From NCBI GenBank assembly GCA_023245415.1, contig JAHFKJ010000001.1, forward strand, positions 32,902 through 96,901: a DNA stretch of 64,000 nt. The letters run 5' to 3'. Positions 1-64,000 of this stretch are shown here, one piece after another. Source of the DNA: Candidatus Gottesmanbacteria bacterium (GTDB lineage: Bacteria; Patescibacteriota; Microgenomatia; UBA10105). The position numbers were made by a program, and so were the translations under genes. The notes beneath the pieces are model-generated. The model was given only the letters and a program-made list of their open reading frames with translations, had not been told where the DNA came from and ran no database searches. Position 1 is the stretch's first letter, and each line of letters opens with the position of its first letter.

Positions 1-672
1 CGGAGAAATAAATGGTTACTAGCAGGGATTTTGGGAATGCTTGCAAGCGCAACGAAAATAACCGGTATTTTACTATTACCTTCTTTAATTTGGGAATGGA
101 TAATAGCTAATAAATTACTGACTAGGCCGTTATTCAAAAATTACAAAATAAATTTTATTTTTAATATTTGTAAATCTCCGTTCTTATACTTGGTGCCACT
201 TGGACTATTGTTATATATGACTTACTTGTATATACAATTTAAAGATCCTTTATTATTTTGGCATGTTCAATCCGCTTTTGGTGCGTCAAGAAGTTCGAAT
301 TCTTTAATTTTTATACCACAGGTTATATGGAGGTATTTGAAAATTTTATCCCAGAATTCCTTCTATCACTATGATTATTGGGTAGCCTTAGTTGAATTCT
401 GCTCATTCATATTTGCTTTTCTAATACTTGTAGCTGGAATGAAATATAATATTAGAAAATCATACTTATTGTATAGCTGGTTACTTTTTTTAACACCTAT
501 TTTTACTGGAACATTCTCATCGCTTCCCAGATATATACTAATTATTTTTCCTATTTATATGATACTTGCAAAGATAAAAAATATATATATATGTAATTTT
601 ACCAAATTTATTTTTTTGGTACTTCTTATAATCTTAACTTCAAATTTCATCAGAGGGCTTTGGGTTGCATAA
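1..672 (+). CDS. 3' portion of a polytopic membrane protein, GT-C-like. The frame is open to the window start, so the gene is 5'-truncated. The listed 31..672 ORF begins at an internal TTG.
   Basis: No stop codon between nt 1 and 31 in this frame. Very hydrophobic, with several predicted TM segments. The segment 'LAGILGMLASATKITGILLLPSL' resembles the GxxxGLxxLTK-type segment of ArnT/PMT_2 glycosyltransferases. It lies immediately upstream of a DPM1-like GT2 gene. Confidence 0.35.
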   Translation, partial: RRNKWLLAGILGMLASATKITGILLLPSLIWEWIIANKLLTRPLFKNYKINFIFNICKSPFLYLVPLGLLLYMTYLYIQFKDPLLFWHVQSAFGASRSSNSLIFIPQVIWRYLKILSQNSFYHYDYWVALVEFCSFIFAFLILVAGMKYNIRKSYLLYSWLLFLTPIFTGTFSSLPRYILIIFPIYMILAKIKNIYICNFTKFIFLVLLIILTSNFIRGLWVA

Positions 673-708
673 TTATTGTTCATAGAAAGCGATGTTATAA
701 TATGAGAC

Positions 709-1392
709 GTGATAAAACTTTTAATTATATTACCTGCCTACAACGAAGAAAAAGTGATTGGGAAAGTACTTAAATCTTTGCCTAGAAAAATCAATCAAAT
801 CATTAAGGTTGATTTGCTTGTAGTTGACGATGGGTCTACAGATGACACACAAGAAATTTGTAGAAGCTGCAATGTGTTGGTAATTCATCATCTAATTAAT
901 AGAGGTTTGGGAGCCGCATTATGCACCGGGTTTACATATGCTGTCAATCATCATTATAATTATGTTGTAACTTTTGATGCCGATGGTCAACATAGTCCAT
1001 CAGATATTGGTCGATTGCTAAAACCTCTGCTTAGTAAAACTGCTGATGTTGTAATTGGTAGTAGAATGTTAAATCTTCAGTCAATGCCTCTGACTCGCAG
1101 ATTTGTGAATTTCTTCTCAAATTTAATTACCCTGCTTTTTTACAAGATCTGGACGACTGACTCTCAGTCAGGGTTGCGTGGATTTACTCTGTCAGCTTTA
1201 CAAAAAATTCGCGTTAGAACCCAACGTATGGAGGTTTCTTCTGAAATTTTTAAGGAAATATCCCGACACCATCTGATTTTTGCAGAAGTTCCAATTTCGT
1301 CATTATATACTAACTATTCATTGCAAAAAGGTCAAAGAATTACAAATGCACCGAATGTATTTTATAAGTTATTATTAAACAATTTTCGTTGA
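709..1392 (+). CDS. GT2 polyprenyl-phosphate sugar synthase (DPM1/GtrB/ArnC-like glycosyltransferase), GTG start
   Basis: N-terminus 'LIILPAYNEEKVIGKVLKSL...VVDDGSTDDT' with the DxD-type motif 'FDADGQH' and 'IGSRM'. This is the classic GT-A fold of dolichol/undecaprenyl-phosphate hexosyltransferases. Confidence 0.75.
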   Translation: MIKLLIILPAYNEEKVIGKVLKSLPRKINQIIKVDLLVVDDGSTDDTQEICRSCNVLVIHHLINRGLGAALCTGFTYAVNHHYNYVVTFDADGQHSPSDIGRLLKPLLSKTADVVIGSRMLNLQSMPLTRRFVNFFSNLITLLFYKIWTTDSQSGLRGFTLSALQKIRVRTQRMEVSSEIFKEISRHHLIFAEVPISSLYTNYSLQKGQRITNAPNVFYKLLLNNFR

Positions 1393-1398
1393 ATTAGA

Positions 1399-1761
1399 AT
1401 GATTATACAATTTGTATTGAGCTTTTTTCTTTTATTTGCTTTAAGTCGTGTCGTTTTGCAGGTGCGTTCAGCAAAAATTTCAATTGGAGCATTTTTATTT
1501 TGGTCGTCATTGTTCGTATTTGCATTGGTTGGCGTAGTTGATCCTAACGTAACCTCTTATTTCGCTAACTTTTTAGGTATCGGTCGCGGTTCAGACGTTG
1601 TGTTTTATATTTCTATTGCCCTGCTTTATTATCTTATATTTCGCTTTTCTATAGCTCTTGAAGACACCCGACGGGAAATAACAGAAATAGTTCGCAGAAT
1701 TGCTTTAAAAGATGATTTAGTTAAGAAAACATCAAGAATCAGATCTCATCGGAGAAAATAG
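1399..1761 (+). CDS. Small (120 aa) 3-4 TM membrane protein, DUF2304/GtrA-like, probable partner of the upstream GT2
   Basis: Hydrophobic, 120 aa, directly follows the GtrB-like GT2 and contains 'GIGRGSDVVFY'. Arrangement and size match the small membrane proteins that accompany polyprenyl-P-sugar GT2 enzymes. Confidence 0.4.
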   Translation: MIIQFVLSFFLLFALSRVVLQVRSAKISIGAFLFWSSLFVFALVGVVDPNVTSYFANFLGIGRGSDVVFYISIALLYYLIFRFSIALEDTRREITEIVRRIALKDDLVKKTSRIRSHRRK

Positions 1762-2909
1762 TGAAACTTCTTCTAATTACCGATTATTTTCCTTCATTAA
1801 CCTCTGTGGATATTCATGGAGGTGTCGAGAAAAGATCATATGAAATTGCCCGATATATTTCCAGAAATCACAACGTTACTGTAATTGCCTCTGGTGAGAA
1901 AGGTAAACCTAGATTTCAAAATTTGAGTGGTATTATTGTGAAAAGAGTAGGTTTATTAAGAGATTATACGCCTTTTGGCAGATATGTCGATTTGTTTAGC
2001 CGTACGGTTTTTCTAATCTTTGCTATATGTTCTGCATTATTTGAAGATTTTGATGTGGTTGAAGGAACAGGACATGTTGGTTGGTTTCCCGCATGGGTAT
2101 GTGCGAAAATTAAATCTAAAAAATCTGTTGCTTTTGTGGCTGATATAGCAGATAAATCTCTCGCTCCCTATATACACCCATTTTCACTTATATGTTTAGA
2201 GGTAGCTCAAAAGTTTATTCTCTCCAGAAGGTGGGATGTAATTATATGTATTAGTTACGCAGTCGCTCGAAAAGTTGATCCCTTAGTTTCTCCGAATGTG
2301 ATAATAAAAGTAATCTATTGTGGTACAAATTTGCATAAACTTCTCAAGCTTTCTGTAGTGAAAAAACGATTACACATCGTATGTGTAGCTAGATTGGTAA
2401 AATACAAAAGAGTTGATGTATTAATCAAAGCTGTCAAAAAAGTAAAAAAGATTTATAAAGGAATTTACCTTTCAATAATCGGCGTAGGCGAGGAACTTCC
2501 GTATCTAAAAAAACTCGCTGCACATCTTGATCTTAATAATAATATAAGTTTTAAGGGATTTGTTCCTGAACAAGTCGACGTGTGGAAAACTATAAAAAAA
2601 GCACAAATTTTCTGTTCACCGTCTGAAGTAGAAGGATTTGGAATTGTTACGGTTGAAGCTTTAGCATCAGGTGTGCCAGTTGTAATTGTAGATTTACCTA
2701 TAAATCATGAAATTACCCAAGAAAAAGGCGCGCTATTTTTTAAAGCCAGAAATGTGGATAGTTTGGCCATTCAGTTAACTCGTCTATTAAACAACAAACA
2801 ATTGTATAGGAAATTATCAAATCAGGCAAAAGCTATTGGCCAGAAATATAGCTGGGTAAATACAAATGTTCAGACGGAGAGATTATATGAAAATATGTAT
2901 GCTAATTGA
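1761..2909 (+). CDS. GT4-family (GT-B fold) glycosyltransferase
   Basis: C-terminal 'PSEVEGFGIVTVEALASGVPVV' E-x7-E-like motif. GTG start overlaps the upstream stop. Confidence 0.7.
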   Translation: MKLLLITDYFPSLTSVDIHGGVEKRSYEIARYISRNHNVTVIASGEKGKPRFQNLSGIIVKRVGLLRDYTPFGRYVDLFSRTVFLIFAICSALFEDFDVVEGTGHVGWFPAWVCAKIKSKKSVAFVADIADKSLAPYIHPFSLICLEVAQKFILSRRWDVIICISYAVARKVDPLVSPNVIIKVIYCGTNLHKLLKLSVVKKRLHIVCVARLVKYKRVDVLIKAVKKVKKIYKGIYLSIIGVGEELPYLKKLAAHLDLNNNISFKGFVPEQVDVWKTIKKAQIFCSPSEVEGFGIVTVEALASGVPVVIVDLPINHEITQEKGALFFKARNVDSLAIQLTRLLNNKQLYRKLSNQAKAIGQKYSWVNTNVQTERLYENMYAN

Positions 2910-4029
2910 CGTATGGAGGCCAATTTGGGGAGGGGGACAAACTCACGTTTGGGAATTGTCTAAAGAACTTATAAAGAATTATTCATGTGAGATCGATATA
3001 TTTACACGTGCATTAGTTGATAAGGACGGGAAGGTGTTTAATAAAACAGAATCTTACTTTAATAAGAAACTGACCATTTATCGTCTAAGTCCCGCCTCTG
3101 ATTTTTTTAATATTTCAATTCGGTTTTATTGGTTGATCGCAGTCGTTATTAAAGTTTTATCTGTATATCCAAATAAGAAATATAATTTACTTCATGCACA
3201 TGCATTTAGTGCGGGTATACCTGGGAAAATCCTAAGTTTCATACTAAAAATTCCACTAGTATTCACAGTTCATGGTAGCCATAATTTAGATCTTAATAAC
3301 AAAAATATTGTTTATTTTATTGAAAATTTTCTTCTAACGAAAATTCCTTACAGTCAGGAAATTACTGTAAGTTCAAAATTCTTAAAATATAAAAATGTAA
3401 ATAAAAACGTAAAAGTAATTCCAAACGGAGTCAATATATTGGATTTTAATAATTCGAAATCTCCTACTCTAAAGACAAATGGAAAACGTTTTTTTAAATT
3501 ATTATGGGTAGGCAGGTTTGACAAATTTAAGGGCTTAGAAATATTAACCCATGCATTTTATTTGGCACTACTTAACAAGTCGCAGATGGTTCTAACTTTA
3601 GTTGGAGATGGTCCTACTAAATCCAATATTAGGCATCTAGTGTCATGGTTAGGAATAAGATTAAGCGTCAAATTCATAAAAAAGCAACAGTTTAAAAAAC
3701 TCAGGAGTTATTATAATCAAACTGATATTTTTGTACTCCCCTCACTTGCTGAAGGCCAATCAATATCGTTATTAGAAGCTCTAGCTGCGGAAAAACCGGC
3801 CGTCGCGACAAATGTAGGAGAAAATTATCGCAGTGTAATAAATGGGTATAACGGGTATTTGATTAAGCCAAACGATGTCAATGAATTATGTACGGCTATA
3901 CAACAGGCAAATATGAATTCAAATTTAACAGCTTGGGGAAAAAGAAGTCAGAAAATCGTAGAAATAGATAATTCCTGGAAAGCAGTCTCATCAAAGACTT
4001 ATAAAACATATGAAAAACTAATTTTGTGA
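2887..4029 (+). CDS. GT4-family glycosyltransferase. Start chosen at MKICML; the ORF is open from 2866.
   Basis: 'LPSLAEGQSISLLEALAAEKPAVATNVGENYRSVINGYNGYLIKP' matches the GT4 C-terminal domain. Confidence 0.65.
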   Translation: MKICMLIDVWRPIWGGGQTHVWELSKELIKNYSCEIDIFTRALVDKDGKVFNKTESYFNKKLTIYRLSPASDFFNISIRFYWLIAVVIKVLSVYPNKKYNLLHAHAFSAGIPGKILSFILKIPLVFTVHGSHNLDLNNKNIVYFIENFLLTKIPYSQEITVSSKFLKYKNVNKNVKVIPNGVNILDFNNSKSPTLKTNGKRFFKLLWVGRFDKFKGLEILTHAFYLALLNKSQMVLTLVGDGPTKSNIRHLVSWLGIRLSVKFIKKQQFKKLRSYYNQTDIFVLPSLAEGQSISLLEALAAEKPAVATNVGENYRSVINGYNGYLIKPNDVNELCTAIQQANMNSNLTAWGKRSQKIVEIDNSWKAVSSKTYKTYEKLIL

Positions 4030-4829
4030 ATAAAACACCTGTGGTTAGTATTATTATGCCGGTATACAATGGAGGCTTTCACTTATTGGAAGCTATAAAT
4101 AGCATATTAAATCAAAGCTACTCAAATTTTGAGTTTATTATAATAAATGACGCGTCTACTGATGATTCGGGAAAGATTCTAAAAAAAATTGCCGACAATC
4201 GTGTAAAACTTTATAGTTTCACTAAACATCTTGGTGTGGCTAAATCATTAAATAAAGCTATATCCTTGGCTAAAGGAAAATTTATAGCCCGAATGGATGC
4301 GGATGACGTTGCCTACCCAGATCGTTTAATGTATCAACTAAACTTTATGAAAGTACACCCTAGAACTGTATTAGTGGGTAGTTGGGTAGAACTTATAAGT
4401 GACCAGGGTGTTTTTATAAGAAACAAATCCTATCCAATACTTTATGAACAGATTAAACGAATTATAATTAGTTACAATCCTTTTGTGCATCCGACTCTGT
4501 TAATGAAAAGTGACATATTTCAGACACTCGGTGGGTATGATGAAACCTTAAATGGTGCAGAGGATTATGATCTAGTATTAAGAATCTCTAAAAAATTCGA
4601 AGTACAAAATATCCCAAAAGTGCTGCTCAAATTTAGATTTAATATTAGTTCTGTTACATACAAAAATATTAAGCAGATTGAACTCCAATCATTTAAAGCC
4701 CGTCTTAAAGCTCTCAGTTTATATAAGTATTCCTTACTTCAAGGATTATTGTTGTTAAAGCCATTTATTTCGTTATGCGTGCCTGAGTTTATTAAGAAAA
4801 CTATTCTGCAAAAAAATAACTTTAAATGA
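4026..4829 (+). CDS. GT2 (GT-A) glycosyltransferase
   Basis: 'VSIIMPVYNGGFHLLEAINSILNQSYSNFEFIIINDASTDDS' and the DxD motif 'ARMDADDV'. GTGA overlap with the upstream gene. Confidence 0.75.
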   Translation: MNKTPVVSIIMPVYNGGFHLLEAINSILNQSYSNFEFIIINDASTDDSGKILKKIADNRVKLYSFTKHLGVAKSLNKAISLAKGKFIARMDADDVAYPDRLMYQLNFMKVHPRTVLVGSWVELISDQGVFIRNKSYPILYEQIKRIIISYNPFVHPTLLMKSDIFQTLGGYDETLNGAEDYDLVLRISKKFEVQNIPKVLLKFRFNISSVTYKNIKQIELQSFKARLKALSLYKYSLLQGLLLLKPFISLCVPEFIKKTILQKNNFK

Positions 4830-6058
4830 TCGTATTAATGTTGTGTGAATTCTTCTATCCCTTTGATAGGGGAGGAAGTGAGTGGAGTGTATTTTATTTA
4901 GCGAAAGGTTTAATCAATACAGGCCATAAAGTAACAATATGCACTCCAAATTACGGTTCAAAAAAAAACGACCTGTATAATTTAATTAGAATTTATCGTT
5001 TCCCGTTTTACATAAAATTAAAAAAAGTTTACTCTACTGTTACACCGCTTGTGTTTTCTACGCCAATTTGGTGGATATACTCCGGATTTTTTACAGTAAA
5101 AGCCATTTTAAAAATAAAACCGAATGTTATACATGTGCAAGGAAAATATTTTTTAGTCGCCGCGATTATTGCTAAACTTATATTCAAAGTGCCGATTGTA
5201 GTAACACTACGAGATTATATTCCATTGTGCCCCATAGGTTTCTGTTTAAGTAAATATCCTTACAAAAGCTGCAACTTAGGACATTTCATTTTTAATGAAA
5301 TACCAGATTATTTAAGAACCTACTCAAGTTCTGCAAATCCTATTTTCCTATCGGTGTTAATAGTGACTAACATATATGCAAAAATCTATTCGATGTTTTT
5401 AGTATTTCTATTGAAGAGGGTCAATAAAATTGTGGGTATAAGTTTTGCGCTGTCGTCAATATATCGAAAAAATTCAATAGATATCGATAACGTCATATAT
5501 AACTCGACAGATTTTTTCACTCCGGCTAAATCGATTCCTAAAAAATACTTGCTCTATCTGGGAAGATTAACGCCAGGAAAAGGAGTCGATTTGCTTATAA
5601 GATCATATCAGCTTGCATCTGATAGATATACGATACCAAAATTACTGATAGTTGGTGACGGTATTTTGAGAACAGAAATTAAGAAACAAAAAAACGTTAG
5701 TCTTCTCGGGCATGTTAAACATTCTTCGATTCGTAGTCTATTTAGGAAAGCATATTTAACAATAGTGCCTTCTGTTTGGCAAGAACCATTCGGTAGAGTT
5801 GCTTTGGAGTCTATAGCTCATAGAGTTCCTGTAGCGGGTACGCTAAGAGGAGGATTACCCGAAATTATAAATAATAATAAAACTGGAATACTGGTAAAGC
5901 CAGAAATATCCCAACTATCAAATGCAATTATTCAACTCTATATTCAAAGGAAGCGATTTTATTTTAATATTAAGCAGGACTACAAGAATTTAAGAAATAA
6001 GTTCGAAAAAAAACCGATTATGGAATATTCAAATATATATGAACATTTAGGTAATTAA
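4826..6058 (+). CDS. GT4-family glycosyltransferase
   Basis: 'GRLTPGKGVDLLIRSY' and 'QEPFGRVALESIAHRVPVAGTLRGGLPEII'. ATGA overlap with the upstream gene. Confidence 0.65.
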   Translation: MIVLMLCEFFYPFDRGGSEWSVFYLAKGLINTGHKVTICTPNYGSKKNDLYNLIRIYRFPFYIKLKKVYSTVTPLVFSTPIWWIYSGFFTVKAILKIKPNVIHVQGKYFLVAAIIAKLIFKVPIVVTLRDYIPLCPIGFCLSKYPYKSCNLGHFIFNEIPDYLRTYSSSANPIFLSVLIVTNIYAKIYSMFLVFLLKRVNKIVGISFALSSIYRKNSIDIDNVIYNSTDFFTPAKSIPKKYLLYLGRLTPGKGVDLLIRSYQLASDRYTIPKLLIVGDGILRTEIKKQKNVSLLGHVKHSSIRSLFRKAYLTIVPSVWQEPFGRVALESIAHRVPVAGTLRGGLPEIINNNKTGILVKPEISQLSNAIIQLYIQRKRFYFNIKQDYKNLRNKFEKKPIMEYSNIYEHLGN

Positions 6059-6061
6059 AAT

Positions 6062-7150
6062 ATGAATTTAGGCGTATTTCTAGCGATTGGAGAAAGTTGG
6101 GAAGATTTTAGATTTAAGGGGCAAGATAGATTATTGATTAATAACAATTATACTTACTATTCAAAATATTTTAATAAAGTGTTCGTTTTTTCATATGGAC
6201 AAAATAATTTAAATTTGCTCAAAAATGTTGATTTACTCGCGAATCCTTTAAGACTACATCGTTATTTATTCACATTTTTCATACCTTTACTTTATTCTTC
6301 CCAAATTAAGCAGTGTTCAGTATTACGCGGAATGCAGTTAACGAGTGCCTTGCCAGGACTTATCGCAAAATTTTTATATAAAAAGAAATTTGTCGTAAAT
6401 TACGGATATGACTATGTTAAAACTGCGTATATCGAGAGTAAGCCAATCCAGGCTGTTTGTTATAAAATAATCGAAAGGTTCTTATTGCGTTTTGTCGATA
6501 TTGTTATTGTAACAACCGAAAAATTAAATCATAAAGTTAAAACTTTAACCAAAAAACCCGTTGAGATTATTCCAAACAGCGTTAACACTCAATTATTCAA
6601 ACCCTTAGTACATCAAAAGAAAGATATAGATCTACTCTTTGTTGGTAGATTAGAGAAACAAAAAAACTTAGAATTCCTTTTAAAAACCATCAGTAAACTC
6701 AAGAATAAAGCTTCTTCAATTGTATTTGTGGGTGATGGAAGTTTAAAGCCGAAACTGTTGGAAATGGCTAAAAAATTGAAAATTAATCTAAGAATTACTG
6801 GTTTTGTGCCACATAATATTACAATTAATTATTATCAACGATCAAAAATTTTTGTATTACCTTCTTTAATTGAGGGTCATCCTAAGGTATTGTTAGAAGC
6901 GATGAGTTGCAGCTTAGCAGTTGTAGGGTCTGCACGAGAAGGGATTAAAGAGTTGATCACACATAATCATGACGGAATATTAGTCGATAACAACACAAGA
7001 GAGTATGTGAAAGTTATGAATAATCTAATAGAAAACGCAATTTTAAGAAATAAAATAGGAAAAATTGCGCGACAAACGATTTTACGTAAATTCGATCAAA
7101 AAAGACTATTTCTGCGGGAAATACAGTTATTAAAAAACTTAAATAAGTAA
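6062..7150 (+). CDS. GT4-family glycosyltransferase
   Basis: 'FVGRLEKQKNLEFLL' and 'VLPSLIEGHPKVLLEAMSCSLAVVGS'. Confidence 0.65.
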   Translation: MNLGVFLAIGESWEDFRFKGQDRLLINNNYTYYSKYFNKVFVFSYGQNNLNLLKNVDLLANPLRLHRYLFTFFIPLLYSSQIKQCSVLRGMQLTSALPGLIAKFLYKKKFVVNYGYDYVKTAYIESKPIQAVCYKIIERFLLRFVDIVIVTTEKLNHKVKTLTKKPVEIIPNSVNTQLFKPLVHQKKDIDLLFVGRLEKQKNLEFLLKTISKLKNKASSIVFVGDGSLKPKLLEMAKKLKINLRITGFVPHNITINYYQRSKIFVLPSLIEGHPKVLLEAMSCSLAVVGSAREGIKELITHNHDGILVDNNTREYVKVMNNLIENAILRNKIGKIARQTILRKFDQKRLFLREIQLLKNLNK

Positions 7151-7152
7151 TT

Positions 7153-18798: not shown

Positions 18799-18799
18799 A

Positions 18800-20029: not shown

Positions 20030-20034
20030 AAAAT

Positions 20035-42935: not shown

Positions 42936-43010
42936 AGAAATTACGCCATTTTACGCTAAGCTTCATTAAATAAAAAGGTCAAATTCTTTTATATAAAATG
43001 AGTGCTTAAT

Positions 43011-51483: not shown

Positions 51484-51580
51484 AATGGGGTACAGTATAA
51501 CATATTAAACTCATTCGGCTCCTAGGTGTATTGATATAATTATTGTTTTAACTCTTACGGTAATCGAATATAATCAAAAT

Positions 51581-52792: not shown

Positions 52793-52797
52793 CTATT

Positions 52798-55749: not shown

Positions 55750-56315
55750 TTCTTTCCCTTCTGCGTCATTTAATGTTGCCGCTTAGGCAAATTAACGACT
55801 TTATTCCCGATAGCGGTTTAAATTATGAACTAGGGTCGGGATATGGAGTCATCAGTACGTATTTAGCTAATTCTCATAGTCAAAGAAGTGTTATCGCAGT
55901 GGATATCGATTCGCAAAAGATCAATCTAGCTCATAAAAAAAACATTAACAAAAATCTTGATTTTGTGGTAGCAGACATACATAAATTTAAACTGGAACTG
56001 TGCCATGGCGTTGTGTTGTCTGACTTTTTACACCATCTTGCCTATGCTACTCATGAGGATGTTATAAAAAAAATTTATTCAAGTTTGGTTAGGGGAGGCG
56101 TATTAGTGATTAAAGAAATCGATGATAATGACGGACTACGTAAATGGTTAAGTCGGTTTTGGGATATGCTACTTTATCCTAAGGACAGGATTTATTACCG
56201 TTCAAAAGCTGAATGGAGTAGTTTACTCAGAAAATACGGATTTACGATATCAATTATGAGAACTGTTTGGTGGTTTCCCGGATCCAGCTACTTATTTATA
56301 TGCAAAAAAAATTAA
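55746..56315 (+). CDS. Class I SAM-dependent methyltransferase. Start chosen at the ATGA overlap; the ORF is open from 55722.
   Basis: 'YELGSGYGVISTYLAN' motif I and 'GGVLVIKE' post-II region. Confidence 0.55.
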   Translation: MILSLLRHLMLPLRQINDFIPDSGLNYELGSGYGVISTYLANSHSQRSVIAVDIDSQKINLAHKKNINKNLDFVVADIHKFKLELCHGVVLSDFLHHLAYATHEDVIKKIYSSLVRGGVLVIKEIDDNDGLRKWLSRFWDMLLYPKDRIYYRSKAEWSSLLRKYGFTISIMRTVWWFPGSSYLFICKKN

Positions 56316-57871
56316 ACAATTGGATTCTTCCATTTATTTTTTTACTAATTATTGCAGTTTTAACTTTTGTGGTGAGAACAATTCGGCTTGAGGAGTTATA
56401 TCATTTTACCTATGACGAAGAAGTTTTTGCGTTTGTCGGAAAACGCATGTTTATAAATCATCATATACCGCTAATCGGGGGTGTAACTCCAATGCACTTC
56501 CACGTTGCACCTTACTTTTATTGGCTGTCGGCAGTTGTACTTTTTATATCAAAGCTTAATCCGGTGGGGTGGGGTATCGCTGCGGCGGTTTTATCGGTTG
56601 TTACGGTTGGTGTTTTATTTTTTGTTTCCAGAAAATTATTTAACACAAAAACTGCCGCGTTGACTGTCGGATTATACTGTCTATCATTTTATCAAAACAT
56701 TTACGATCGACATTATTGGGGACTAAGCTTCGATGGATTAATATCAATCCTGACTATCTATTTTTTATACAAAATGGTAATGGGGGGTAAGAATTATGTA
56801 TTTGTGTTAGCGCTTATCATAGCCTTTGGATTTCACACCGATCTTTCAACTTTAAACTTATTCCTGCTTTCGTTATTTGTAATCGTGGGTATGAAAGTTA
56901 GACTCGCGAAAAAACAAATATTCTTCGCGAGTGCATTATTTGGTATTACCTTTTCGCCGTTAATTCTATTTGATATTAGACATGATTTTTCCAATAGCAG
57001 GGGGATTATTCAGTATTTTAATGAAATAAGTTCTAGTAGAAAAGGAGTTATAAATCAATCAGCAGTTGACAGTGTATTATTCGTTCCCCGGAGTTTGGTT
57101 CGCAGTTTGTATGTATTTGGCAATACAGATTTAGCCAGACAATATTCTTATTGTCCAGTTCATGCTCTAGGTAGGCTTCAAGATGTGCCCAATTTATTTG
57201 CGCTACTAGTCACTGCAATAATTGCATATTTCTTTTTTATACATCGAAGATCTTATACACAGATTCAGATGAAACTTATAATTGCATTGTTTGCTTTAAC
57301 TTATATGGGCCTTTCTATTTATGGGGTAATATTAAAAGGCGATCTTTTCGACCATTATTTAGGTACGTTATATCCGATATTTTATTTGATTGTATCTAGT
57401 GTTTTAATAAACTTTTTTCAAAAAAAACAAATTATTATTGTACTTTTGGTGACAGTTTATACTGTATTTAATCTCCAACTTTTAAGTAAAGTTCAAAATC
57501 GTTTTGGATACAGTTTAAAGCAAGAGGCAGTTAGATGGGTGATTGCAGAAACTGGAGCTGAGCCTTTTTCATTGGATGTGATTAGTAGTTGTTTTCGCTA
57601 TAACGGTTATCGCTACTTATTTTATCTTTATGGTAAAGAACCGGCAAAAAGCTATGTAGATGCAAATTTTACCTACTTATATGACATTCCCCCGGTCGAA
57701 AAACATCCCAAAACGCTCGTGGTTATCACAAATCCAGATTATACAGAAACCAAGGAATATTTTTATGAGTACGAAAAATATGTACGCAAACTGGTTAAGA
57801 AAAAAAACTTTGGTAATATTGAAATACTCATAATAGATAATAGTAATTTAGATTTTGTGGGGAAATTTTAA
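56267..57871 (+). CDS. Large polytopic membrane protein, GT-C-like. The real start is probably near 56300 (MQKKLNNW).
   Basis: 534 aa. First loop 'YHFTYDEEVFAFVGKRM'. C-terminal soluble domain. Confidence 0.4.
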   Translation: MVVSRIQLLIYMQKKLNNWILPFIFLLIIAVLTFVVRTIRLEELYHFTYDEEVFAFVGKRMFINHHIPLIGGVTPMHFHVAPYFYWLSAVVLFISKLNPVGWGIAAAVLSVVTVGVLFFVSRKLFNTKTAALTVGLYCLSFYQNIYDRHYWGLSFDGLISILTIYFLYKMVMGGKNYVFVLALIIAFGFHTDLSTLNLFLLSLFVIVGMKVRLAKKQIFFASALFGITFSPLILFDIRHDFSNSRGIIQYFNEISSSRKGVINQSAVDSVLFVPRSLVRSLYVFGNTDLARQYSYCPVHALGRLQDVPNLFALLVTAIIAYFFFIHRRSYTQIQMKLIIALFALTYMGLSIYGVILKGDLFDHYLGTLYPIFYLIVSSVLINFFQKKQIIIVLLVTVYTVFNLQLLSKVQNRFGYSLKQEAVRWVIAETGAEPFSLDVISSCFRYNGYRYLFYLYGKEPAKSYVDANFTYLYDIPPVEKHPKTLVVITNPDYTETKEYFYEYEKYVRKLVKKKNFGNIEILIIDNSNLDFVGKF

Positions 57872-58656
57872 TGAATACGCCAATTACTGTACATATGATC
57901 GTAAAAAACGAAGAGCAGTGGGTTTGGTATTCGATAATGTCGGTATTACATTTTGTCCAAAAGATCGTAATCTTCGATACAGGATCTACAGATAATACTA
58001 TCTCAATTATAAACAAGATTGATTCAGACAAAATCGAGCTTGAAACTTTTCCGGACATATCTGGGCAAGATTTGGTATCGATTCGAAATGAACAAATTGA
58101 TAAAACCCTAACCGATTGGTTTATGTTATTGGATGGAGATGAAGTTTGGCCAATAACGGCAATGCAAGATTTCTTAGCTGTTGTTACTGATTCAAATTCA
58201 CAATTTGATGCAATTGCACTACCTGTGATCATTCCGGTTGGAAACCTATTTCACGCACAACCCGAGTCCGCAGGCCGTTATGAGATTCAAGGAAATTACG
58301 GGCATTTCAATATCCGCGGGTATCGAAAAAGTAGTCAATATAAGTGGATGGGAGTATTTCCATTGGAGGCTTACACTGATAAAGTTGGTCGTACTATACA
58401 AAGCAAAAATAAGCGCATACATCTGTTAAAACGTAGTTATTGGCATATGACACATATGCGACGTTCAAAAATTGATACGCATAATAAATTTAAGCTCGAA
58501 ATTGGAGAACATATATTTACTCCTTTGCCTGAAGTATTTTTTCTCACGCGGCCGGTAATGGTTCCAACTCCCTGGATAACATATTCAGCCTATGATCTAG
58601 TTTGTGCTCAAATTCGAACGCCAATCGTTAAAATAAAACGGATATTAGGGCTATAA
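57871..58656 (+). CDS. GT2-like (GT-A) glycosyltransferase
   Basis: 'ITVHMIVKNEEQWV...IVIFDTGSTDNT' and the 'LLDGDEVW' DxD-type motif. Confidence 0.4.
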   Translation: MNTPITVHMIVKNEEQWVWYSIMSVLHFVQKIVIFDTGSTDNTISIINKIDSDKIELETFPDISGQDLVSIRNEQIDKTLTDWFMLLDGDEVWPITAMQDFLAVVTDSNSQFDAIALPVIIPVGNLFHAQPESAGRYEIQGNYGHFNIRGYRKSSQYKWMGVFPLEAYTDKVGRTIQSKNKRIHLLKRSYWHMTHMRRSKIDTHNKFKLEIGEHIFTPLPEVFFLTRPVMVPTPWITYSAYDLVCAQIRTPIVKIKRILGL

Positions 58657-58658
58657 TT

Positions 58659-59876
58659 GTGCTTAATAAAATTAAATCGCATATCAGAAACAATTCCATA
58701 TTTTGGGTAATAATTGTACTCGGAATATGTGTAAGAATTTTATTAAATAGTGCAGTAGATTCGTTCGATTTTCATGCTTTTGTCATGTGGGCTAACTATC
58801 TAACTGTGCATCGTATTGCTGATGCGTTTACCTATCTTCCTGAAGGTTACACTCCCTATCCGCCGCTATATTATTATATTCTGTGGTTTTTAGGTCGAAC
58901 TATAAGTTTTTTGGGTGTTTGGGAAAATAAATGGCTGACCTATCTCATAATCAGAATACCGGTAATTGCTGCAGATACCTTAATCGCATACTTGATCTAT
59001 TTATTTACTCAAAAAAACATGTCCAAAAAGGAGGCTATAATTGCAGTTATATTTTATTTTCTGCATCCGGCAGTAATTTATAATACTTCAATTTGGGGTC
59101 AGATTGATGCAATCGTGACATTATTGGGCTTTTTAAGCGTGGTTGCCTTTTTGTCTAAGCAAAATTTTTGGGGAATAGGTCTTTATATACTAGGTGTGAT
59201 TACTAAATTGCAGATTCTTGCACTGCTCCCACTGATAGTATTTTTAAGTTTGAATAAAAAGCCGGGAATTCATAAGTTTTTTACATCACTGCTGGTTTGG
59301 GGTGCTATCGCATTTTTACCCTTTGTACCAATTGTTTATGTAAACGGATTTAAATGGACTTGGGATTATTTTTTTACTATACCCAACTGGTATGCATATA
59401 CCTCGATATATGCATACAATATCTGGGCGCCATTTGGATTTATAGTATCTGACAACACAAAGTTGTTTGGGCTAATCGCTTATAAATTTATCGGCATCGG
59501 ATTATTTTGGTTTGTAGCTTTTATTATTCTTTATCCATTATTTAAGAAAGTCAATCGTACACCACAAGCGATAATGTACGCAGCATTTTTATTGTGGTTC
59601 GATTTCGCCTTTTTTGCTACCCGCATTCACAGTCGATATCTTATTTATAGTTTCGGATTTTTCGCGCCATTTAGCGCAAAATTTCCGAAATTAGCTGCAC
59701 TTATCAGTATCATTATGATTGGTAATTTGCTCTTGCCCAATAAAAACGTTGTTTTGTCAGCGTTTGTCTATTGGTTGAATCAACCAATTGTTATTGCAGG
59801 TATAGTTATTTTTGCTTTTTGTATATTTATTTATAGCTATAAACTGTATATAAAAAGGATATTACGTAGAGTATAG
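58659..59876 (+). CDS. Polytopic membrane protein (405 aa), GT-C-like (PMT 'DE-HF'-like loop motif)
   Basis: 'SAVDSFDFHAFVMWANYL' in the first loop region resembles the D-E/D-x-HF motif of PMT-type mannosyltransferases. About 10 or more TM segments. Confidence 0.3.
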   Translation: MLNKIKSHIRNNSIFWVIIVLGICVRILLNSAVDSFDFHAFVMWANYLTVHRIADAFTYLPEGYTPYPPLYYYILWFLGRTISFLGVWENKWLTYLIIRIPVIAADTLIAYLIYLFTQKNMSKKEAIIAVIFYFLHPAVIYNTSIWGQIDAIVTLLGFLSVVAFLSKQNFWGIGLYILGVITKLQILALLPLIVFLSLNKKPGIHKFFTSLLVWGAIAFLPFVPIVYVNGFKWTWDYFFTIPNWYAYTSIYAYNIWAPFGFIVSDNTKLFGLIAYKFIGIGLFWFVAFIILYPLFKKVNRTPQAIMYAAFLLWFDFAFFATRIHSRYLIYSFGFFAPFSAKFPKLAALISIIMIGNLLLPNKNVVLSAFVYWLNQPIVIAGIVIFAFCIFIYSYKLYIKRILRRV

Positions 59877-59902
59877 AATCGGCTTAATCGGTCTCATTAT
59901 CT

Positions 59903-61270
59903 ATGAAATTGCGCCGTACTGATGGATACCACTTCCTTTTTTTAGGAGCATTGTTGATTTTTCATATTTGTCTTCTTCTGCTTACTAAATTTACTGCTTG
60001 GCCGGAAATGCTTATTTATCCATTTTTAATGGAGAAGGGATTTAAATTATATTCAGATATTATTCAACCATACATGCCCATACTGCCATATACGCTTTTG
60101 TACTGGTTTCATCTAAGCGGGTTTTCAGTATGGTCACTTCGCATATTTACGATATTGCTAATACTAATTTCAGATGTTTTATTTATTAAGATCGCCAACA
60201 ATATATTTAAACTGAAGACTTCCTTAACGGCGTTACTGATTTTTATCGGCTTTCAGGTTTATTTTGAAGGTAATGGACTCTGGTTTGATTTATTTGCAAC
60301 TCCGTTTATGCTTTTTTCAGCACTAATCTTCATCAGAGTTAAAACACCTAAATTTTTAGACATAATTTGGATTGGTATATTATTAGGAACGAGCTTTATC
60401 GTAAAACAGTCTACAGCTTGGGTAATATTGGGGATATGTTGTTTGTTGGTGGGAGGAAGAAAAATAAAATTGGTGGGAATAATTTTGTTTGTCTCTCTTA
60501 TTCCGGTTTTCCTGGTAATGGTTATTTTTGGTTTCGTACCAATATATCAATGGGCTTTACATTATCCTTTTTTTGAAATGACTAAATCTCCTGGTTTTAT
60601 GGTTCTTCCTAGTTTTAAACAATTGATTCTTATAATAATATTTTTTTCACCAGTATTTCCAGCTCTATCATCAAAAAATCCCGCGGTACCCGTACTTATA
60701 ACTTTTTTTCTGGGATCTCTTGGTTTTCTAATTCCCCGATTTGCCATGTTTCACTTTCAACCTCTTGTTCCATATTTTGTTTTGTTGCTATGTATCGCTT
60801 TTTCCGAGCATAGTGATAAATTGTTCCGATTATTTATTGGGTTATATATAATATTTTCATTATGCCTGTTAACTAAATTTTTTCTGCAAAACACCCTTCG
60901 TCCAGTGAGATTTTTTGAACCTGAGGTATATGCTTGGGCAGCACTTATAAAGCAAAAAATACCGTCTTCGAAACCAATCTTTTTCTATAACGTTATTGCA
61001 AACGAAATATTATTGACTGGTTTTACTCCAGTTAAACCATGGGTTGACAACTTTCCCTGGTATATGGAAATACCCGGAATACAAAATAGAATTATCGACG
61101 AAATCGAAGTCGAAAGTACCGAATGGGTAATTGCTGCGCCATTTAAGTCAGAGGGGAAGTATGTTCCCGGTTCATATAAACCAGCAGAAATTGACGTATA
61201 TCTTCACCAAAAGTACATCAAAGTAGATAATATTTCACCTGAATTAGAGTTTTGGAAACGCATTCGTTAA
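59903..61270 (+). CDS. Polytopic membrane protein (455 aa) with a C-terminal soluble domain
   Basis: Highly hydrophobic over most of its length. No clear catalytic motif. Confidence 0.3.
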   Translation: MKLRRTDGYHFLFLGALLIFHICLLLLTKFTAWPEMLIYPFLMEKGFKLYSDIIQPYMPILPYTLLYWFHLSGFSVWSLRIFTILLILISDVLFIKIANNIFKLKTSLTALLIFIGFQVYFEGNGLWFDLFATPFMLFSALIFIRVKTPKFLDIIWIGILLGTSFIVKQSTAWVILGICCLLVGGRKIKLVGIILFVSLIPVFLVMVIFGFVPIYQWALHYPFFEMTKSPGFMVLPSFKQLILIIIFFSPVFPALSSKNPAVPVLITFFLGSLGFLIPRFAMFHFQPLVPYFVLLLCIAFSEHSDKLFRLFIGLYIIFSLCLLTKFFLQNTLRPVRFFEPEVYAWAALIKQKIPSSKPIFFYNVIANEILLTGFTPVKPWVDNFPWYMEIPGIQNRIIDEIEVESTEWVIAAPFKSEGKYVPGSYKPAEIDVYLHQKYIKVDNISPELEFWKRIR

Positions 61271-62379
61271 ACTCGCTGAAAAAAACAGGGAGATGTTACA
61301 ATAACAGTGTGAAGATAGCTTTTTTGTCATTTTATAGTGGTCATATAGATCGAGGTGTGGAAGTGGCTGTTTTTGAATTAGCAAAGCGTCTCGGTAGAAG
61401 TCATCGGGTTACACTTTTTCAAGCGGGGAAGCGTCAAGAAGATGATGTATCGACTCTCATTCTGGACGTTGAAAAAAAGTGGCCACAAGATACAAGCGGA
61501 TCAATATTCAGGTTGATTTATTTTGATTATTACAGTCGCAAAATCGCCTGGTTTACACTGAAGTTCTTACCATATTTATTTAACGAGAAGTATGATGTGG
61601 TTATTCCAACAAACGGTGGATGGCAGGTATTATTCTGTCGTTTGGCCACATGGTTTTTAGGTAAGAAGTTGTTAGTTCAAGGAAATGCAGGAATAGGCAG
61701 AGATGATTTTTGGCAACTTCTGATGCACCCTGACGTTTATATCGCGATATCTCCGGCAGGGTATAAATGGGTTCAAAGTAAACTTAGTTGGATAAAAAAA
61801 ACATATATCCCATATGGTGTTGATTGTCAGATGCTTAAATCTATCAAAACCGCAGATATCAAACTTACAAGTCCAATTATTTTATGTGTTTGTGCTTTCT
61901 CGCCATTTAAACGAGTGAGGCTATTAATTGATGCCGTTGCCAAGCTTAAGAACGTAAGTTTATTACTTATAGGTCAAGGCCCCGACGAAGAAACTTTACG
62001 AACTACTGCTAAAAAATTAATCGGCACCAAACGATTTTTAATGTTGACTGGGATTACACACGAAGAATTGTGGCCATATTACAAGGCAGCAGACATTTTT
62101 TCATTACCGAGTTCTAAAACGGAAGCGTTTGGAATTGTACAAATTGAGGCTATGGCCATGGGACTTGCAGTCGTGGCTACTGATGACTTTAATCGTCAAG
62201 AAATTATTGGTGAAGCTGGAATTTTAGTCGATCCAACGAACACCGATGCCTATGCTCAGGCCTTAAGACTTGCTCTGAATGTAGACTTTGGACAAAAACC
62301 GCAAATTCAGGCTCAAAAATTTTCTTGGGACAAAATTATAAGAGACTATAATCAGTTATTAAATCAAATTAAAATATGA
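61252..62379 (+). CDS. GT4-family glycosyltransferase
   Basis: 'LPSSKTEAFGIVQIEAMAMGLAVVATD'. Start uncertain, because the 5' end overlaps the upstream gene. Confidence 0.65.
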   Translation: METHSLNSLKKTGRCYNNSVKIAFLSFYSGHIDRGVEVAVFELAKRLGRSHRVTLFQAGKRQEDDVSTLILDVEKKWPQDTSGSIFRLIYFDYYSRKIAWFTLKFLPYLFNEKYDVVIPTNGGWQVLFCRLATWFLGKKLLVQGNAGIGRDDFWQLLMHPDVYIAISPAGYKWVQSKLSWIKKTYIPYGVDCQMLKSIKTADIKLTSPIILCVCAFSPFKRVRLLIDAVAKLKNVSLLLIGQGPDEETLRTTAKKLIGTKRFLMLTGITHEELWPYYKAADIFSLPSSKTEAFGIVQIEAMAMGLAVVATDDFNRQEIIGEAGILVDPTNTDAYAQALRLALNVDFGQKPQIQAQKFSWDKIIRDYNQLLNQIKI

Positions 62380-63215
62380 AAGTATCTGTAATTATACCTA
62401 GTTTCAATGAGGAACAAAATATTGTCGAGTGTATCACATCTCTTGGGCAGCAAACTAAACCTCATGAACTTATCATCGTTGACGATTGTTCAACAGATGA
62501 TACCGTTGCCACCTTAAAGCGATTACACTTTCTTAATTCAAAATTGGTATTGTTGCAACAAAACCATCTAGGTCCGGGTGCAGCAAGAAATATGGGAGCG
62601 AAACAGTCAACAGGTGAGATTTTGGTTTTTGTTGATGCAGACATGTCGTTTGCTCCAGATTTCCTAGAAGAATTAGTCGGACCAATTGAAGACGCTAGAA
62701 CAAAGGGTACGTTTACGAGAATCGAATATGTAAAAAATTGGGATAATGTTTGGGCTCGTTGCTGGAATTACAATCAGGGCATTAGAATAAATATTCGAAT
62801 ACCCCAAAATTATCCTAATACTTCACCTGTGTTTCGTGCCATCCTCAAATCAGAATTTATTCGAGTCGGTGGATTTGAGCACCATGCAGGTTGGACAGAT
62901 GACTGGTCGTTATCGCAAAAACTTAATTACAAAGCAACAGAAACACCGGCAGTATGTTTTCATATAAACCCAAAAACTTTGATTGAAGTCTTTATTCAGG
63001 CGCGTTGGGTAGGAAAAAATACTTTTATGTCGAGAAATATACTTACTATTTTCATGAGTTTAATAAAGTTTTCATTCCCTGTTTCGTTTTCTGTGGGGAT
63101 TTGCAAAGCAATTATTTATAGGCAGCCAAAATTTCTATTTTTTAAACTCATACATGATTTGGGTATATATTTAGGTCTAACATCTGCTTTGTCCGGTGGG
63201 CACAGAAATAAATGA
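62376..63215 (+). CDS. GT2 (GT-A) glycosyltransferase
   Basis: 'KVSVIIPSFNEEQNIVECITSLGQQTKPHELIIVDDCSTDDT' and 'VFVDADMSFAPDF'. Confidence 0.7.
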   Translation: MKVSVIIPSFNEEQNIVECITSLGQQTKPHELIIVDDCSTDDTVATLKRLHFLNSKLVLLQQNHLGPGAARNMGAKQSTGEILVFVDADMSFAPDFLEELVGPIEDARTKGTFTRIEYVKNWDNVWARCWNYNQGIRINIRIPQNYPNTSPVFRAILKSEFIRVGGFEHHAGWTDDWSLSQKLNYKATETPAVCFHINPKTLIEVFIQARWVGKNTFMSRNILTIFMSLIKFSFPVSFSVGICKAIIYRQPKFLFFKLIHDLGIYLGLTSALSGGHRNK

Positions 63216-64000
63216 ACCTCAAAATAATCATCCGCGATTTACTTCTGATATTGCTTCTCTACTTAGGATTATTAAATGGTACGAATCAAATTGATACGAT
63301 TATCGGATTTATATTGTTTATATATGTGTCAAGTGTGTTATTTCTAGGACTCAGAATTAATTTAATGAAGCGTTGGCTTATTCTTCCATTACTTCTTATG
63401 TTTGTGCTCACGAGCCAGTTAAACAGCTCTAAAATTAAAGATTATTTAAGTCGAGAGCCGATTAATAAGTCATATCGAACTGATATGGATGATTTTTTAA
63501 AAACATTTTATCGTATGAAGCAGGGTGGTGATTATTATTCAAGTTACAAGTACTCAATCGAACAAAATCCTTTCAAGGGTTTAGTTTCAACCAACCTTTG
63601 GTCGTGGAGATTACCCACTCTATTCTTAATTTGGACCTGGTTTACTGGAAAAACTGGTTTATTTATTTACTATTTATTTCTCCTAAATTGTATTGGTGTT
63701 TTATTTTGCAGTTATAAATTAATTGAGAAATTACTTCATCCAAAAGTTCAACATTTTGCAATCCTTGCTCCGTACTTACTCTTTCCTTATTTGCACTTCG
63801 CAAATCGCGATACCACACTTTTGCAATCTGAATGGTGGGGAATGTTTTTTTATATATATGGTGTTTGTTTTCTAATTATAAAAAAGAGAAAAATATCGCT
63901 ACTGTGTTTTGTTCTTGCAATTTTAAGCCGTGAACTTTTTATTTCCCCTTTAGCACTTAGTTTGATGTATAGTTTGTTTTCCGACAGGAAAAACATTTTT
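63212..64000 (+). CDS. 5' portion of a membrane protein; runs off the 3' end of the window. It is absent from the ORF track because it has no stop codon.
   Basis: ATG at 63212 overlaps the upstream stop (ATGA). The frame is open for 263 codons to nt 64000. The translation 'MNLKIIIRDLLLILLLYLGLL...' is hydrophobic with several TM segments. Confidence 0.35.
   Translation, partial: MNLKIIIRDLLLILLLYLGLLNGTNQIDTIIGFILFIYVSSVLFLGLRINLMKRWLILPLLLMFVLTSQLNSSKIKDYLSREPINKSYRTDMDDFLKTFYRMKQGGDYYSSYKYSIEQNPFKGLVSTNLWSWRLPTLFLIWTWFTGKTGLFIYYLFLLNCIGVLFCSYKLIEKLLHPKVQHFAILAPYLLFPYLHFANRDTTLLQSEWWGMFFYIYGVCFLIIKKRKISLLCFVLAILSRELFISPLALSLMYSLFSDRKNIF

Follow-up and report, generated by a model that had tools for sequence, protein, structure and literature searches.

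An island of divergent GT-C-type membrane proteins and putative lipid-phosphate sugar synthases in a Microgenomates-type bacterium

What is built by a locus that encodes large polytopic membrane proteins in such numbers, several of them directly beside family 2 glycosyltransferases (GT2)? The stretch of DNA that raises this question, hereafter the window, comprises 64 kb (64,000 nt) of Candidatus Gottesmanbacteria contig JAHFKJ010000001.1 (positions 32,902-96,901), and the same sequence is present, by exact-protein match, in the metagenome assemblies ENA ERZ27276474 and Logan SRR14366783. An initial annotation had viewed the window as a modular system in which membrane glycosyltransferases of the GT-C fold act outside the cytoplasm together with DPM1-like synthases of lipid-phosphate sugars; families, motifs, structure models and synthase matches support this view. 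The window lies midway in an island of cell-surface glycan genes that extends over at least 80 kb and belongs to a Microgenomates-type bacterium of the candidate phyla radiation (CPR; Patescibacteria). We propose that Gtr/Arn/Gac-type extracytoplasmic glycosylation has probably been multiplied here, with GT-C enzymes and lipid-phosphate sugar synthases possibly forming an assembly line on the outside of the membrane.

All 13 polytopic open reading frames (ORFs) listed by the initial annotation were recovered where it had placed them, each with 6-12 transmembrane (TM) segments by Kyte-Doolittle hydropathy, and the several C-terminal soluble domains that it had mentioned correspond to non-membrane tails of 125-170 aa in 8 of the 13 proteins. 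The genes, cited here by their first coordinate, include two that are clipped by the window ends (1-672 and 63212-end), whose full lengths of 386 aa and 388 aa were obtained from overlapping metagenome contigs. Matches above the Pfam cut-off were found for 15123-16946 (- strand; ALG9-like GT22, PF03901 at 29.3 bits with a cut-off of 23.8, residues 73-446, with a 170-aa C-terminal tail), for 52798-54369 (+; a GT-C-like DUF2142 protein, PF09913 at 74 bits), for the PMT_2 proteins 56267-57871 (+; PF13231 at 28.3 bits) and 59903-61270 (+; PF13231 at 30 bits), and for full-length U1. The latter is a PIG-V/Mannosyl_trans2-type GT-C protein with 8 TM segments (PF04188 at 22.5 bits, cut-off 22.4, residues 33-245); the window (1-672, +) holds its C-terminal 223 aa, and the full gene lies at 4150-5310 of the upstream contig L003. 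The PMT_2-like protein 37356-38933 (-) scored below the cut-off (22.1 bits, cut-off 26.1) and weakly matched Agl23 (TIGR03663, E 4e-7), and 32601-34034 (+), a probable GT-C-like protein, carries a DUF6798 C-terminal segment (PF20604, 29.9 bits). The 5' part of the longest ORF of the GT22 gene shares 154 bp with that of the divergently oriented DegT gene 16793-17986 (+). As the Pfam match of the GT22 protein does not begin before residue 73, and its first TM segment starts near residue 39, translation probably begins at an internal Met (about M38).

Nothing in Pfam, NCBIfam or the PDB sequences matched the remaining proteins. These are U2 (26917-28476, -; a probable GT-C with 8 TM segments and a 148-aa C-terminal tail), U3 (39693-41447, +; an unmodelled GT-C family with STT3/AftA-like architecture and a C-terminal globular domain), the PMT_2-related U4 (41448-42935, -), U5 (51581-52792, +; a second unmodelled GT-C family), the GT87/DUF2029- or Gpi18-like U6 (58659-59876, +) and the probable GT-C U7 (63212-64000, +; N-terminal 262 of 388 aa, with the full gene, encoding 8 TM segments, at 1153-2319 of the downstream contig L005). 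U3, U4, U5 and U6 are tied to the GT-C superfamily through homologues that carry PMT_2 or GT87 matches: one of the only 8 homologues of U4 has PF13231, and distant members among the 70 homologues of U6 carry PF09594, PF13231 and PF26314, with one bearing the JGI label 'Gpi18-like mannosyltransferase'. A scan of metagenome contigs with U2 found no relatives. Several of the GT-C families lack a database model, and for at least four (U2, U3, U5 and U7) no Pfam model detects the window protein.

The initial annotation had asked whether these paralogs form one expanded family, which in the sense of recent paralogy was not borne out. All-versus-all BLASTP and phmmer comparisons among the 13 gave no significant pair (best E 0.009), family hidden Markov models (HMMs) searched against the window proteins gave zero cross-family detection, and the families are linked only at the level of profile-profile comparison or fold. 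By hhalign, colinear alignments joined GT-C families at 84-96%: U5 with 56267 (95.6%), 59903 (93.2%) and U7 (87.3%); U6 with the DUF2142 protein (92.6%) and 56267 (92.1%); U4 with 56267 (87.5%); and U3 with 15123 (89.3%), 26917 (86.8%) and 32601 (84.2%, spanning residues 27-206 of the latter). In the controls, the Wzx-type flippase 8336-9592 reached at most 1.4% with every GT-C family, and the maximum among 147 comparisons with reversed or block-shuffled sequences was 22.5%. U2 also aligned at 62% with the PMT_2 family of 56267 (its own decoys reached at most 8.2%), and 37356 at 62% with U4. The connection between U7 and U5 recurred at the HMM level, where a U7 homologue from locus L012 matched the U5 HMM at 4.8e-8 and a U5 homologue from locus L013 matched the U7 HMM at 8.5e-5. 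As judged from these comparisons, the 13 proteins are anciently diverged GT-C lineages that were brought together, not recent duplicates. The GT-C assignment carries high confidence for 10 of the 13 and moderate confidence for 26917, 32601 and 63212.

The initial annotation had placed an acidic motif just after the first TM helix of most of these proteins. All of the motifs that it quoted are present, 5-20 residues past TM1, and their acidic residues are invariant or nearly so wherever homologues were available; loop 1 measures 46-117 aa in most of the 13. Invariant acidic residues are D43 and E44 of U4 (in GDE), D30 and E31 of the DUF2142 protein (PDEQ, 15 sequences), D50 and E51 of 56267 (YDE, 13 sequences), D24 and D25 of U5, and D37 of U6, which is invariant together with W44 in 66 sequences. 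In U3, D65 is 92% and E70 98% conserved, and across the U3, U4, U5, U6, 52798 and 56267 families conservation of the loop-1 acidic residues is 92-100%. Such a residue is also conserved in the small alignments of 59903 (E35 of WPEM, 5 sequences), U1 (D54 of the motif WANFD54GVHY, 3 sequences) and U7. These counts cover families with homologues; 15123, 26917, 32601 and 37356 had none, and their motifs are YTVPDEV (beginning at residue 93) in 15123, TTDEGIALY right after TM1 in U2 and HGDEVGVGY after TM1 in 37356. The N-termini are short and K/R-rich (that of U2 included), which by a crude positive-inside count would put them inside and loop 1 outside for most of the proteins, several with small margins.

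Structure comparison, which the initial annotation had proposed, was carried out for U3 and U5. Among 1.84 billion representative proteins, 1,576 relatives of the two were retrieved by an exhaustive HMMER search, and alignments of 62 (U3) and 65 (U5) sequences yielded AlphaFold (AF2) models with predicted local distance difference test scores of 93.7 and 96.5, respectively. Both models are all-helical bundles whose top ~20 PDB neighbors are exclusively GT-C enzymes, among them AftA, AftB, AftD and PimE, as well as PIG-U and GAB1. All 28 of the top Foldseek matches of the U3 model were GT-C proteins, and transporters had a probability of <0.1. On the basis of the models, both proteins adopt unambiguous GT-C folds, with Pmt4 and Pmt2 near U5. 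The PMT_2 model is reached by a minority of the family members (9 of 65 and 6 of 62), comparison of the U3 and U5 family profiles with PDB sequences yielded only noise, and a genome-contig scan with the single U3 protein returned no match. U3 and U5 are outlying GT-C families that are mostly missed by current models.

The two modelled proteins invite comparison with enzymes of protein glycosylation. Residues ~400-584 of U3 carry the family-invariant W411-L-N-x-N and R459 at the position of the WWDYG motif of oligosaccharyltransferases (OSTs) such as STT3, AglB and PglB. Unlike in those enzymes, WWDYG was absent from U3 and from all window proteins in a regular-expression search, and AftA scored equally well against U3; identification of U3 as a true OST was rejected. 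The U5 family has an invariant QDDF followed, further along loop 1, by an invariant WYRPLS. The loop-1 motifs DD and SHKSYRP of TMTC O-mannosyltransferases have been modelled as catalytic and donor-binding sites (PMC7801869). U5 shares with TMTC1-4 the invariant DD and the downstream YRP(L), and its best structural matches include Pmt4 and Pmt2. Unlike TMTC and PMT proteins, it is a protein of 403 aa without TPR or MIR domains; it is 6-13% identical to the GT-C structures that it matched and shows no sign of a protein acceptor. U5 ends 47 aa past its last TM segment and, lacking a TPR domain, was not classed as a TMTC protein despite the motifs.

The initial annotation had named transporters and Wzy polymerases as other identities for the polytopic proteins. 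None of the 13 matched Wzy_C (PF04932), MOP or transporter families in Pfam or NCBIfam, and the sole Wzy_C domain belongs to a fusion protein ~8 kb downstream of the window. A transporter or Wzy identity for the family-less proteins was rejected because there was no such family match and transporters scored <0.1 against the U3 model.

The second component of the proposed system is a set of GT2 enzymes. Six had been viewed as polyprenyl-phosphate sugar synthases, and all six match Pfam Glycos_transf_2; the best NCBIfam and PDB matches uphold that view for five of them. The product of 709-1392 (+; 98 bits, no TM segment) is PpgS/GacI-like, with a full-length match to PpgS as its best NCBIfam model (140 bits) and DPM synthase 5mlz and ArnC as its best PDB matches. 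A DPM1-like protein is encoded by 38930-39661 (-; 99 bits), for which the Pyrococcus DPM synthase 5mlz is the best PDB match (92 bits). The 45117 protein matches GtrB 5ekp (179 bits) and ArnC (120 bits) over its full length and NCBIfam PgfS at 186 bits, and it ends in a two-TM hairpin (TM segments at 240-283). The ArnC/GtrB-like protein of 54356-55081 (+; 97 bits) has ArnC and GtrB as its best PDB matches (~50 bits) and PgfS (77 bits) and ArnC (63 bits) in NCBIfam; two methyltransferases follow (55078-56315). Like class-I DPM1 catalytic subunits, 38930 and 54356 lack an evident membrane anchor. A fusion at 24024-25643 (-) combines Glycos_transf_2 (residues 9-167), for which Dol-P-hexose transferase, PpgS and AglJ are the best NCBIfam matches, with Methyltransf_23 (327-464) and a C-terminal TM segment (499-527). 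By their best matches, 709, 38930, 45117, 54356 and the N-domain of 24024 are thus supported as likely synthases of this kind. The sixth candidate, 62376-63215 (+), is a generic GT2 with one C-terminal TM segment; its best NCBIfam matches are EpsD and TuaG, and in the PDB 5tze, GalT1 and chondroitin synthase rank above DPM synthase and ArnC. Two further conventional GT2 genes, absent from the earlier list, are 4026 and 57871.

The close association of GT2 and GT-C genes that had been pointed out is evident in overlaps of a few bases (the translationally coupled pair 38930/37356, 52798/54356 and 62376/63212) and in the 37-bp spacing between the first GT-C gene and 709. The latter is followed by 1399-1761 (+), which encodes a small 3-TM protein of the DUF2304 family (PF10066, 86 bits, full length) and resembles GacJ and Rv3632. 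The GlcNAc-P-Und synthase GacI is bound in a stable complex by GacJ, which increases the Vmax of GacI by orders of magnitude, and PpgS is stimulated by Rv3632 (bioRxiv 10.1101/180810). By analogy, the DUF2304 protein is likely to be the activating partner of the adjacent synthase. The initial annotation had called it GtrA/DUF2304-like; the DUF2304 assignment held, and a role as a GtrA-type flippase was rejected, as the family is one of synthase activators (bioRxiv 10.1101/180810). Another module, 43002-46076 (+), mirrors Arn logic in that an NAD-dependent dehydratase/epimerase and a DegT aminotransferase stand together with the GtrB/ArnC-type synthase 45117. The fusion 24024 adjoins the C-methyltransferase 25640, with GT-C gene 26917 close by; the fusion and its neighbors suggest that the lipid-linked sugar donor itself may be methylated.

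Conservation across lineages was assessed by a genome scan with a 16-sequence subset of U5, from which 31 loci were annotated. A syntenic core (DegT - U5 - DUF2142 - GT2 54356 - methyltransferase - PMT_2 56267) was found in Gottesmanbacteria, Curtissbacteria, Daviesbacteria and other Patescibacteria, and one Patescibacteria genome extends it by GT2 57871, U6, a PIG-V-like protein and PMT_2 59903. In the core-bearing loci, polytopic proteins of at least 330 aa with 7 or more TM segments number 5-9 per 11-21 kb. Loci of Planctomycetota, Krumholzibacteriia and Latescibacterota, which have distant U5 relatives, hold 1-3. The GT-C-like proteins make up 13 of ~59 genes in the window, compared with non-CPR loci from the same query in which ~20 kb encode 1-3 polytopic proteins. 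Dense GT-C clustering is therefore a trait of this CPR lineage and is not peculiar to the window. The closest relatives, from Candidatus Gottesmanbacteria, are 62% identical to 58659 and 41% to 51581; others come from Curtissbacteria, Daviesbacteria and unclassified Patescibacteria, and 56267 has orthologues in the Gottesman-, Curtiss- and Daviesbacteria loci. Few or no relatives of 26917 and of 32601-42935 were present in the genome and metagenome collections scanned. The closest relatives being all from Patescibacteria, an archaeal origin, and with it archaellin as the acceptor, was rejected; the initial annotation had listed archaellin among the possible acceptors, and the source is a CPR bacterium. 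Six records of metagenome-assembled genomes (L007, L009, L010, L012, L015 and L027) show Microgenomates-type synteny, with proteins 37-42% identical to those of the window, and their title 'uncultured Gammaproteobacteria bacterium' looks wrong.

The surroundings of these genes are devoted to glycans as well. The window has a G+C content of 31-36% throughout and 59 non-overlapping ORFs, with only 4 intergenic gaps >60 bp per 64 kb, and Pfam and NCBIfam scans of essentially all ORFs found every recognisable gene to be glycan-related. Besides the polytopic set there are 7 GT4/GT1-type and 8 GT2 glycosyltransferases, 6 DegT aminotransferases, several 4,6-dehydratase/epimerase genes, RmlD, acetyltransferases, 2 NDP-hexose C-methyltransferases and several other methyltransferases. 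Six cytoplasmic glycosyltransferases stand in a row at 1761-8370 (+), namely 5 GT4 enzymes (Pfam Glycos_transf_1/Glyco_transf_4) and the EpsE-like GT2 4026-4829 (Glycos_transf_2; NCBIfam EpsE, 133 bits). They are followed by the Wzx-type (MOP) flippase 8336-9592 (-; Polysacc_synt at 44 bits, and Polysacc_synt_3), a polytopic protein that had been absent from the earlier list. A 126-aa ORF at 11393-11773 (+), located between genes of the opposite strand, matches only the C-terminal domain of MOP flippases (Polysacc_synt_C at a sub-threshold 25 bits) and seems to be what is left of a second flippase gene. A block at 18013-22970 (-) encodes, by Pfam, HisF-like, WbuX amidotransferase (TIGR03573, 371 bits), HisH-like, formyltransferase-like, NeuB synthase and CMP-sugar synthetase proteins for a nonulosonic acid or acetamidino sugar; together with 28541-31425 (+), and with a PseB-like dehydratase among the genes, the nonulosonic acid pathway looks complete. 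The C-terminus of a 633-aa protein encoded after the nonulosonate genes matches the 'surface carbohydrate biosynthesis protein' models TIGR04396/BFO_1060, which makes it a candidate nonulosonate transferase. The genes 11770-13011 (-) and 25640-26884 (-) encode paralogous NDP-hexose C-methyltransferases (Methyltransf_13 and Methyltransf_14, 189-192 bits), and this pair implies branched-chain (C-methyl) sugars in the product.

Overlapping metagenome contigs established that the island runs past both ends of the window. Upstream are another GT2, a GT4, a protein termed X1 and the full 386-aa gene that ends as window 1-672. X1 (L003:2438-4153; 571 aa, ~8 TM segments, SDEFD after TM1 and a 168-aa C-terminal tail) has a GT-C-like architecture, yet it has no Pfam match and reached at most 4.2% by hhalign with every island family. 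The downstream contig carries the full 388-aa gene that starts at 63212, a weak PMT_2 protein (X2), a methyltransferase and a second Wzx and, further on, 2 GT4 genes, a hexapeptide transferase and a Wzy_C-PMT_2 fusion. The fusion (L005:8633-11155, ~8 kb past the window end; at least 841 aa, or 1,037 aa by gene call; ~17 TM segments) carries at its N-terminus a Wzy_C domain (48 bits; of O-antigen ligase, polymerase or PglL type) and at its C-terminus a PMT_2 GT-C domain (53 bits). The protein O-oligosaccharyltransferases PglL/PilO belong to the Wzy_C family, and a WaaL-type ligase would find no lipid A-core in a monoderm CPR cell. In such a cell a reading of the fusion as this kind of ligase makes little sense, and a polymerase or a protein O-oligosaccharyltransferase, in either case coupled to a GT-C domain, is a possible identity.

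From the observed folds and families, conserved motifs, gene adjacency and synteny we infer donor identities, flipping, reaction order and acceptor as follows. Cytoplasmic nucleotide-sugar pathways would supply a nonulosonic acid with an acetamidino branch, several 4-amino-4,6-dideoxyhexoses and C-/O-methylated sugars, and soluble GT4 and GT2 enzymes with Wzx flippases would build and export a polyprenyl-diphosphate-linked oligosaccharide. In parallel, the five DPM1/GtrB/ArnC/PpgS-like GT2 enzymes, one of them helped by the GacJ-type DUF2304 activator, would couple single sugars to polyprenyl phosphate on the inner side of the membrane. After flipping of these lipid-linked donors, the 13 divergent GT-C enzymes could extend or decorate a surface glycoconjugate on the outside, with catalysis presumably by the conserved Asp/Glu of the first external loop. 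Many GT-C enzymes share two donors in the assembly of mycobacterial arabinogalactan and lipoarabinomannan (LAM), and in a similar stepwise outside assembly each GT-C protein of the island would make a distinct linkage. Candidates for the acceptor are a wall-linked polysaccharide, a lipoglycan or proteins (S-layer, pilins). The initial annotation had spoken of a modular system for decoration; the extracytoplasmic, modular character is upheld, and stepwise assembly fits better than simple decoration. The ~2.6:1 ratio of GT-C enzymes to synthases (13:5) and the lineage-wide conservation of the individual GT-C genes are our reasons for favoring an assembly line over strain-variable seroconversion add-ons. 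More tentatively, in Microgenomates-type CPR bacteria with their ~1 Mb genomes, the conserved island of at least 80 kb might possibly be a mycobacteria-like outside line on which more than a dozen GT-C enzymes build a complex surface heteropolymer or lipoglycan from a few polyprenyl-phosphate sugars.

Several observations weigh against the proposed assembly line. No initiating phosphoglycosyltransferase was found in family scans of the window ORFs, and no GtrA/SMR-type flippase (PF04138) was found among the scanned window ORFs of at least 100 aa; Wzx-type flippases are present in the island, and the DUF2304 protein is the sole small membrane protein among the scanned ORFs. The topology comes from a crude hydropathy and positive-inside calculation, not from a dedicated predictor, and 26917, 32601 and 63212 are joined to the other families solely by hhalign profile-profile comparison (84-87%) and by architecture. 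The GT-C fold also has non-catalytic members, and PIG-U is among the structural matches of U3 and U5. The locus could equally hold several independent glycan pathways side by side.

Each component has counterparts in known systems. Three-component systems consist of a synthase, a flippase and a GT-C enzyme (PMC11127046), and Gtr (GtrA/GtrB/GtrC), ArnC/ArnT and CsbB/GtcA/YfhO follow the same logic of a synthase with an outside-acting GT-C enzyme (PMC11127046). The 45117 protein is a full-length homologue of GtrB and ArnC with the hairpin, and its gene, in keeping with the Arn pathway, comes after those of a dehydratase and an aminotransferase. Unlike in the Gtr systems, the window lacks a GtrA/SMR-type flippase, 13 GT-C enzymes accompany 5 synthases instead of pairing 1:1, and the genes are lineage-conserved, not phage-borne or serotype-specific. 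The genes 709, 1399 and U1, taken with Wzx 8336, resemble GacI/GacJ/GacK/GacL of the GlcNAc side chain of the Group A carbohydrate of Streptococcus pyogenes and PpgS/Rv3632/Rv3779 of M. tuberculosis; shared with these systems are a GT2 polyprenyl-P-HexNAc synthase, a DUF2304 activator directly after it, and a GT-C protein and a Wzx-type flippase in the locus. In contrast to Gac and PpgS, the GT-C partner is PIG-V/GT76-like and not GacL- or Rv3779-like, and the triplet is one of at least five donor modules. The GT-C set of the Corynebacteriales (EmbA/B/C, AftA-D, PimE and MptA-C, with decaprenyl-P-arabinose and polyprenyl-P-mannose) likewise has many divergent GT-C enzymes that draw on few lipid-monophosphate donors for a polymer made outside the membrane. 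The mycobacterial genes are spread over 4 Mb, whereas here 13-16 lie within ~80 kb of a genome of probably ~1 Mb, without sequence-level orthology to the mycobacterial enzymes.

Other readings of the locus differ in the product or in the roles of the polytopic proteins. If its purpose were protein glycosylation, the GT-C proteins would mainly be PMT/TMTC-like O-glycosyltransferases or OST-like enzymes that directly modify S-layer proteins and type IV pilins, acceptors of the kind that the initial annotation had brought up. Cells of the CPR do have S-layers and abundant pili; several of the 13 proteins are PMT_2-type, U5 has the DD and YRP loop-1 motifs of TMTC protein O-mannosyltransferases, U3 is most like STT3/AglB/PglB, C-terminal globular domain included, and the Wzy_C-PMT_2 fusion lies 8 kb downstream in a cell presumably without lipid A-core. 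Pilin glycosylation has also been predicted for Saccharibacteria (PMC11623550). Nevertheless, neither the window nor the fetched flanks contain a pilin or S-layer gene, the broad PMT_2 model takes in ArnT-like enzymes that act on lipids or glycans as well, U3 is without WWDYG and U5 without TPR, and there would be no precedent for 13 different protein glycosyltransferases in a single locus; we regard protein glycosylation as rather unlikely to be the main function of the GT-C proteins.

It is distinctly unlikely, in our estimation, that the island is a mosaic of independent, strain-variable Gtr/Gac/Csb-type modules, each adding an optional side-chain sugar, e.g., for phage evasion. The arrangement of GT2 and GT-C genes as self-contained couples, the lack of pairwise sequence similarity between the families, the few or no homologues of 26917 and 32601-42935 in the scans, and the variation in gene content around the conserved core between related genomes would all suit such a mosaic. 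However, the core at 50290-61270, with 5 GT-C genes, is syntenic across candidate phylum-level Microgenomates groups with orthologues 40-60% identical, so that a conserved function is favored over an optional one, and 5 synthases are too few for 1:1 pairing with 13 GT-C proteins. Finally, some of the family-less polytopic proteins might not be glycosyltransferases at all and might serve as polymerases, ligases or flippases, or as scaffolds with a non-catalytic GT-C fold, like PIG-U or the flippase-associated proteins of the Agl23 type. The system needs flippases for its lipid-linked sugars and none was identified; 26917 and 63212 are without a family match, 32601 matches only DUF6798, X1 has neither a family match nor an hhalign link, 37356 weakly matches Agl23 ('flippase activity-associated protein'), and PIG-U and GAB1 are among the structural neighbors. 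Against these stand the catalytic-type loop-1 Asp/Glu that is conserved in every alignable family, the lack of any Wzy_C, MOP or transporter match, and the probability of <0.1 for transporters with the U3 model, and we consider such identities highly improbable.

The multiplied extracytoplasmic glycosylation that we favor relies on machinery that is known in kind; the novelty lies in how large and dense it is for a reduced genome, in its conservation across Microgenomates and in several GT-C families that current profile libraries miss. No paper on these GT-C clusters turned up in limited literature searches. The findings widen the sequence space of the GT-C superfamily and provide a case of many GT-C enzymes with few donors outside the Corynebacteriales, and the five candidate lipid-sugar synthases, the 13 GT-C enzymes with putative catalytic residues and the two high-confidence models are targets for further work. 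The CPR/Patescibacteria comprise a large share of bacterial diversity and live attached to other cells, and their surface chemistry is almost uncharted. Here a reduced genome devotes a large contiguous share of its coding capacity to extracytoplasmic glycosylation. If the more tentative, mycobacteria-like reading is correct, a so far undescribed envelope glycoconjugate could be central to the episymbiotic lifestyle of these bacteria.

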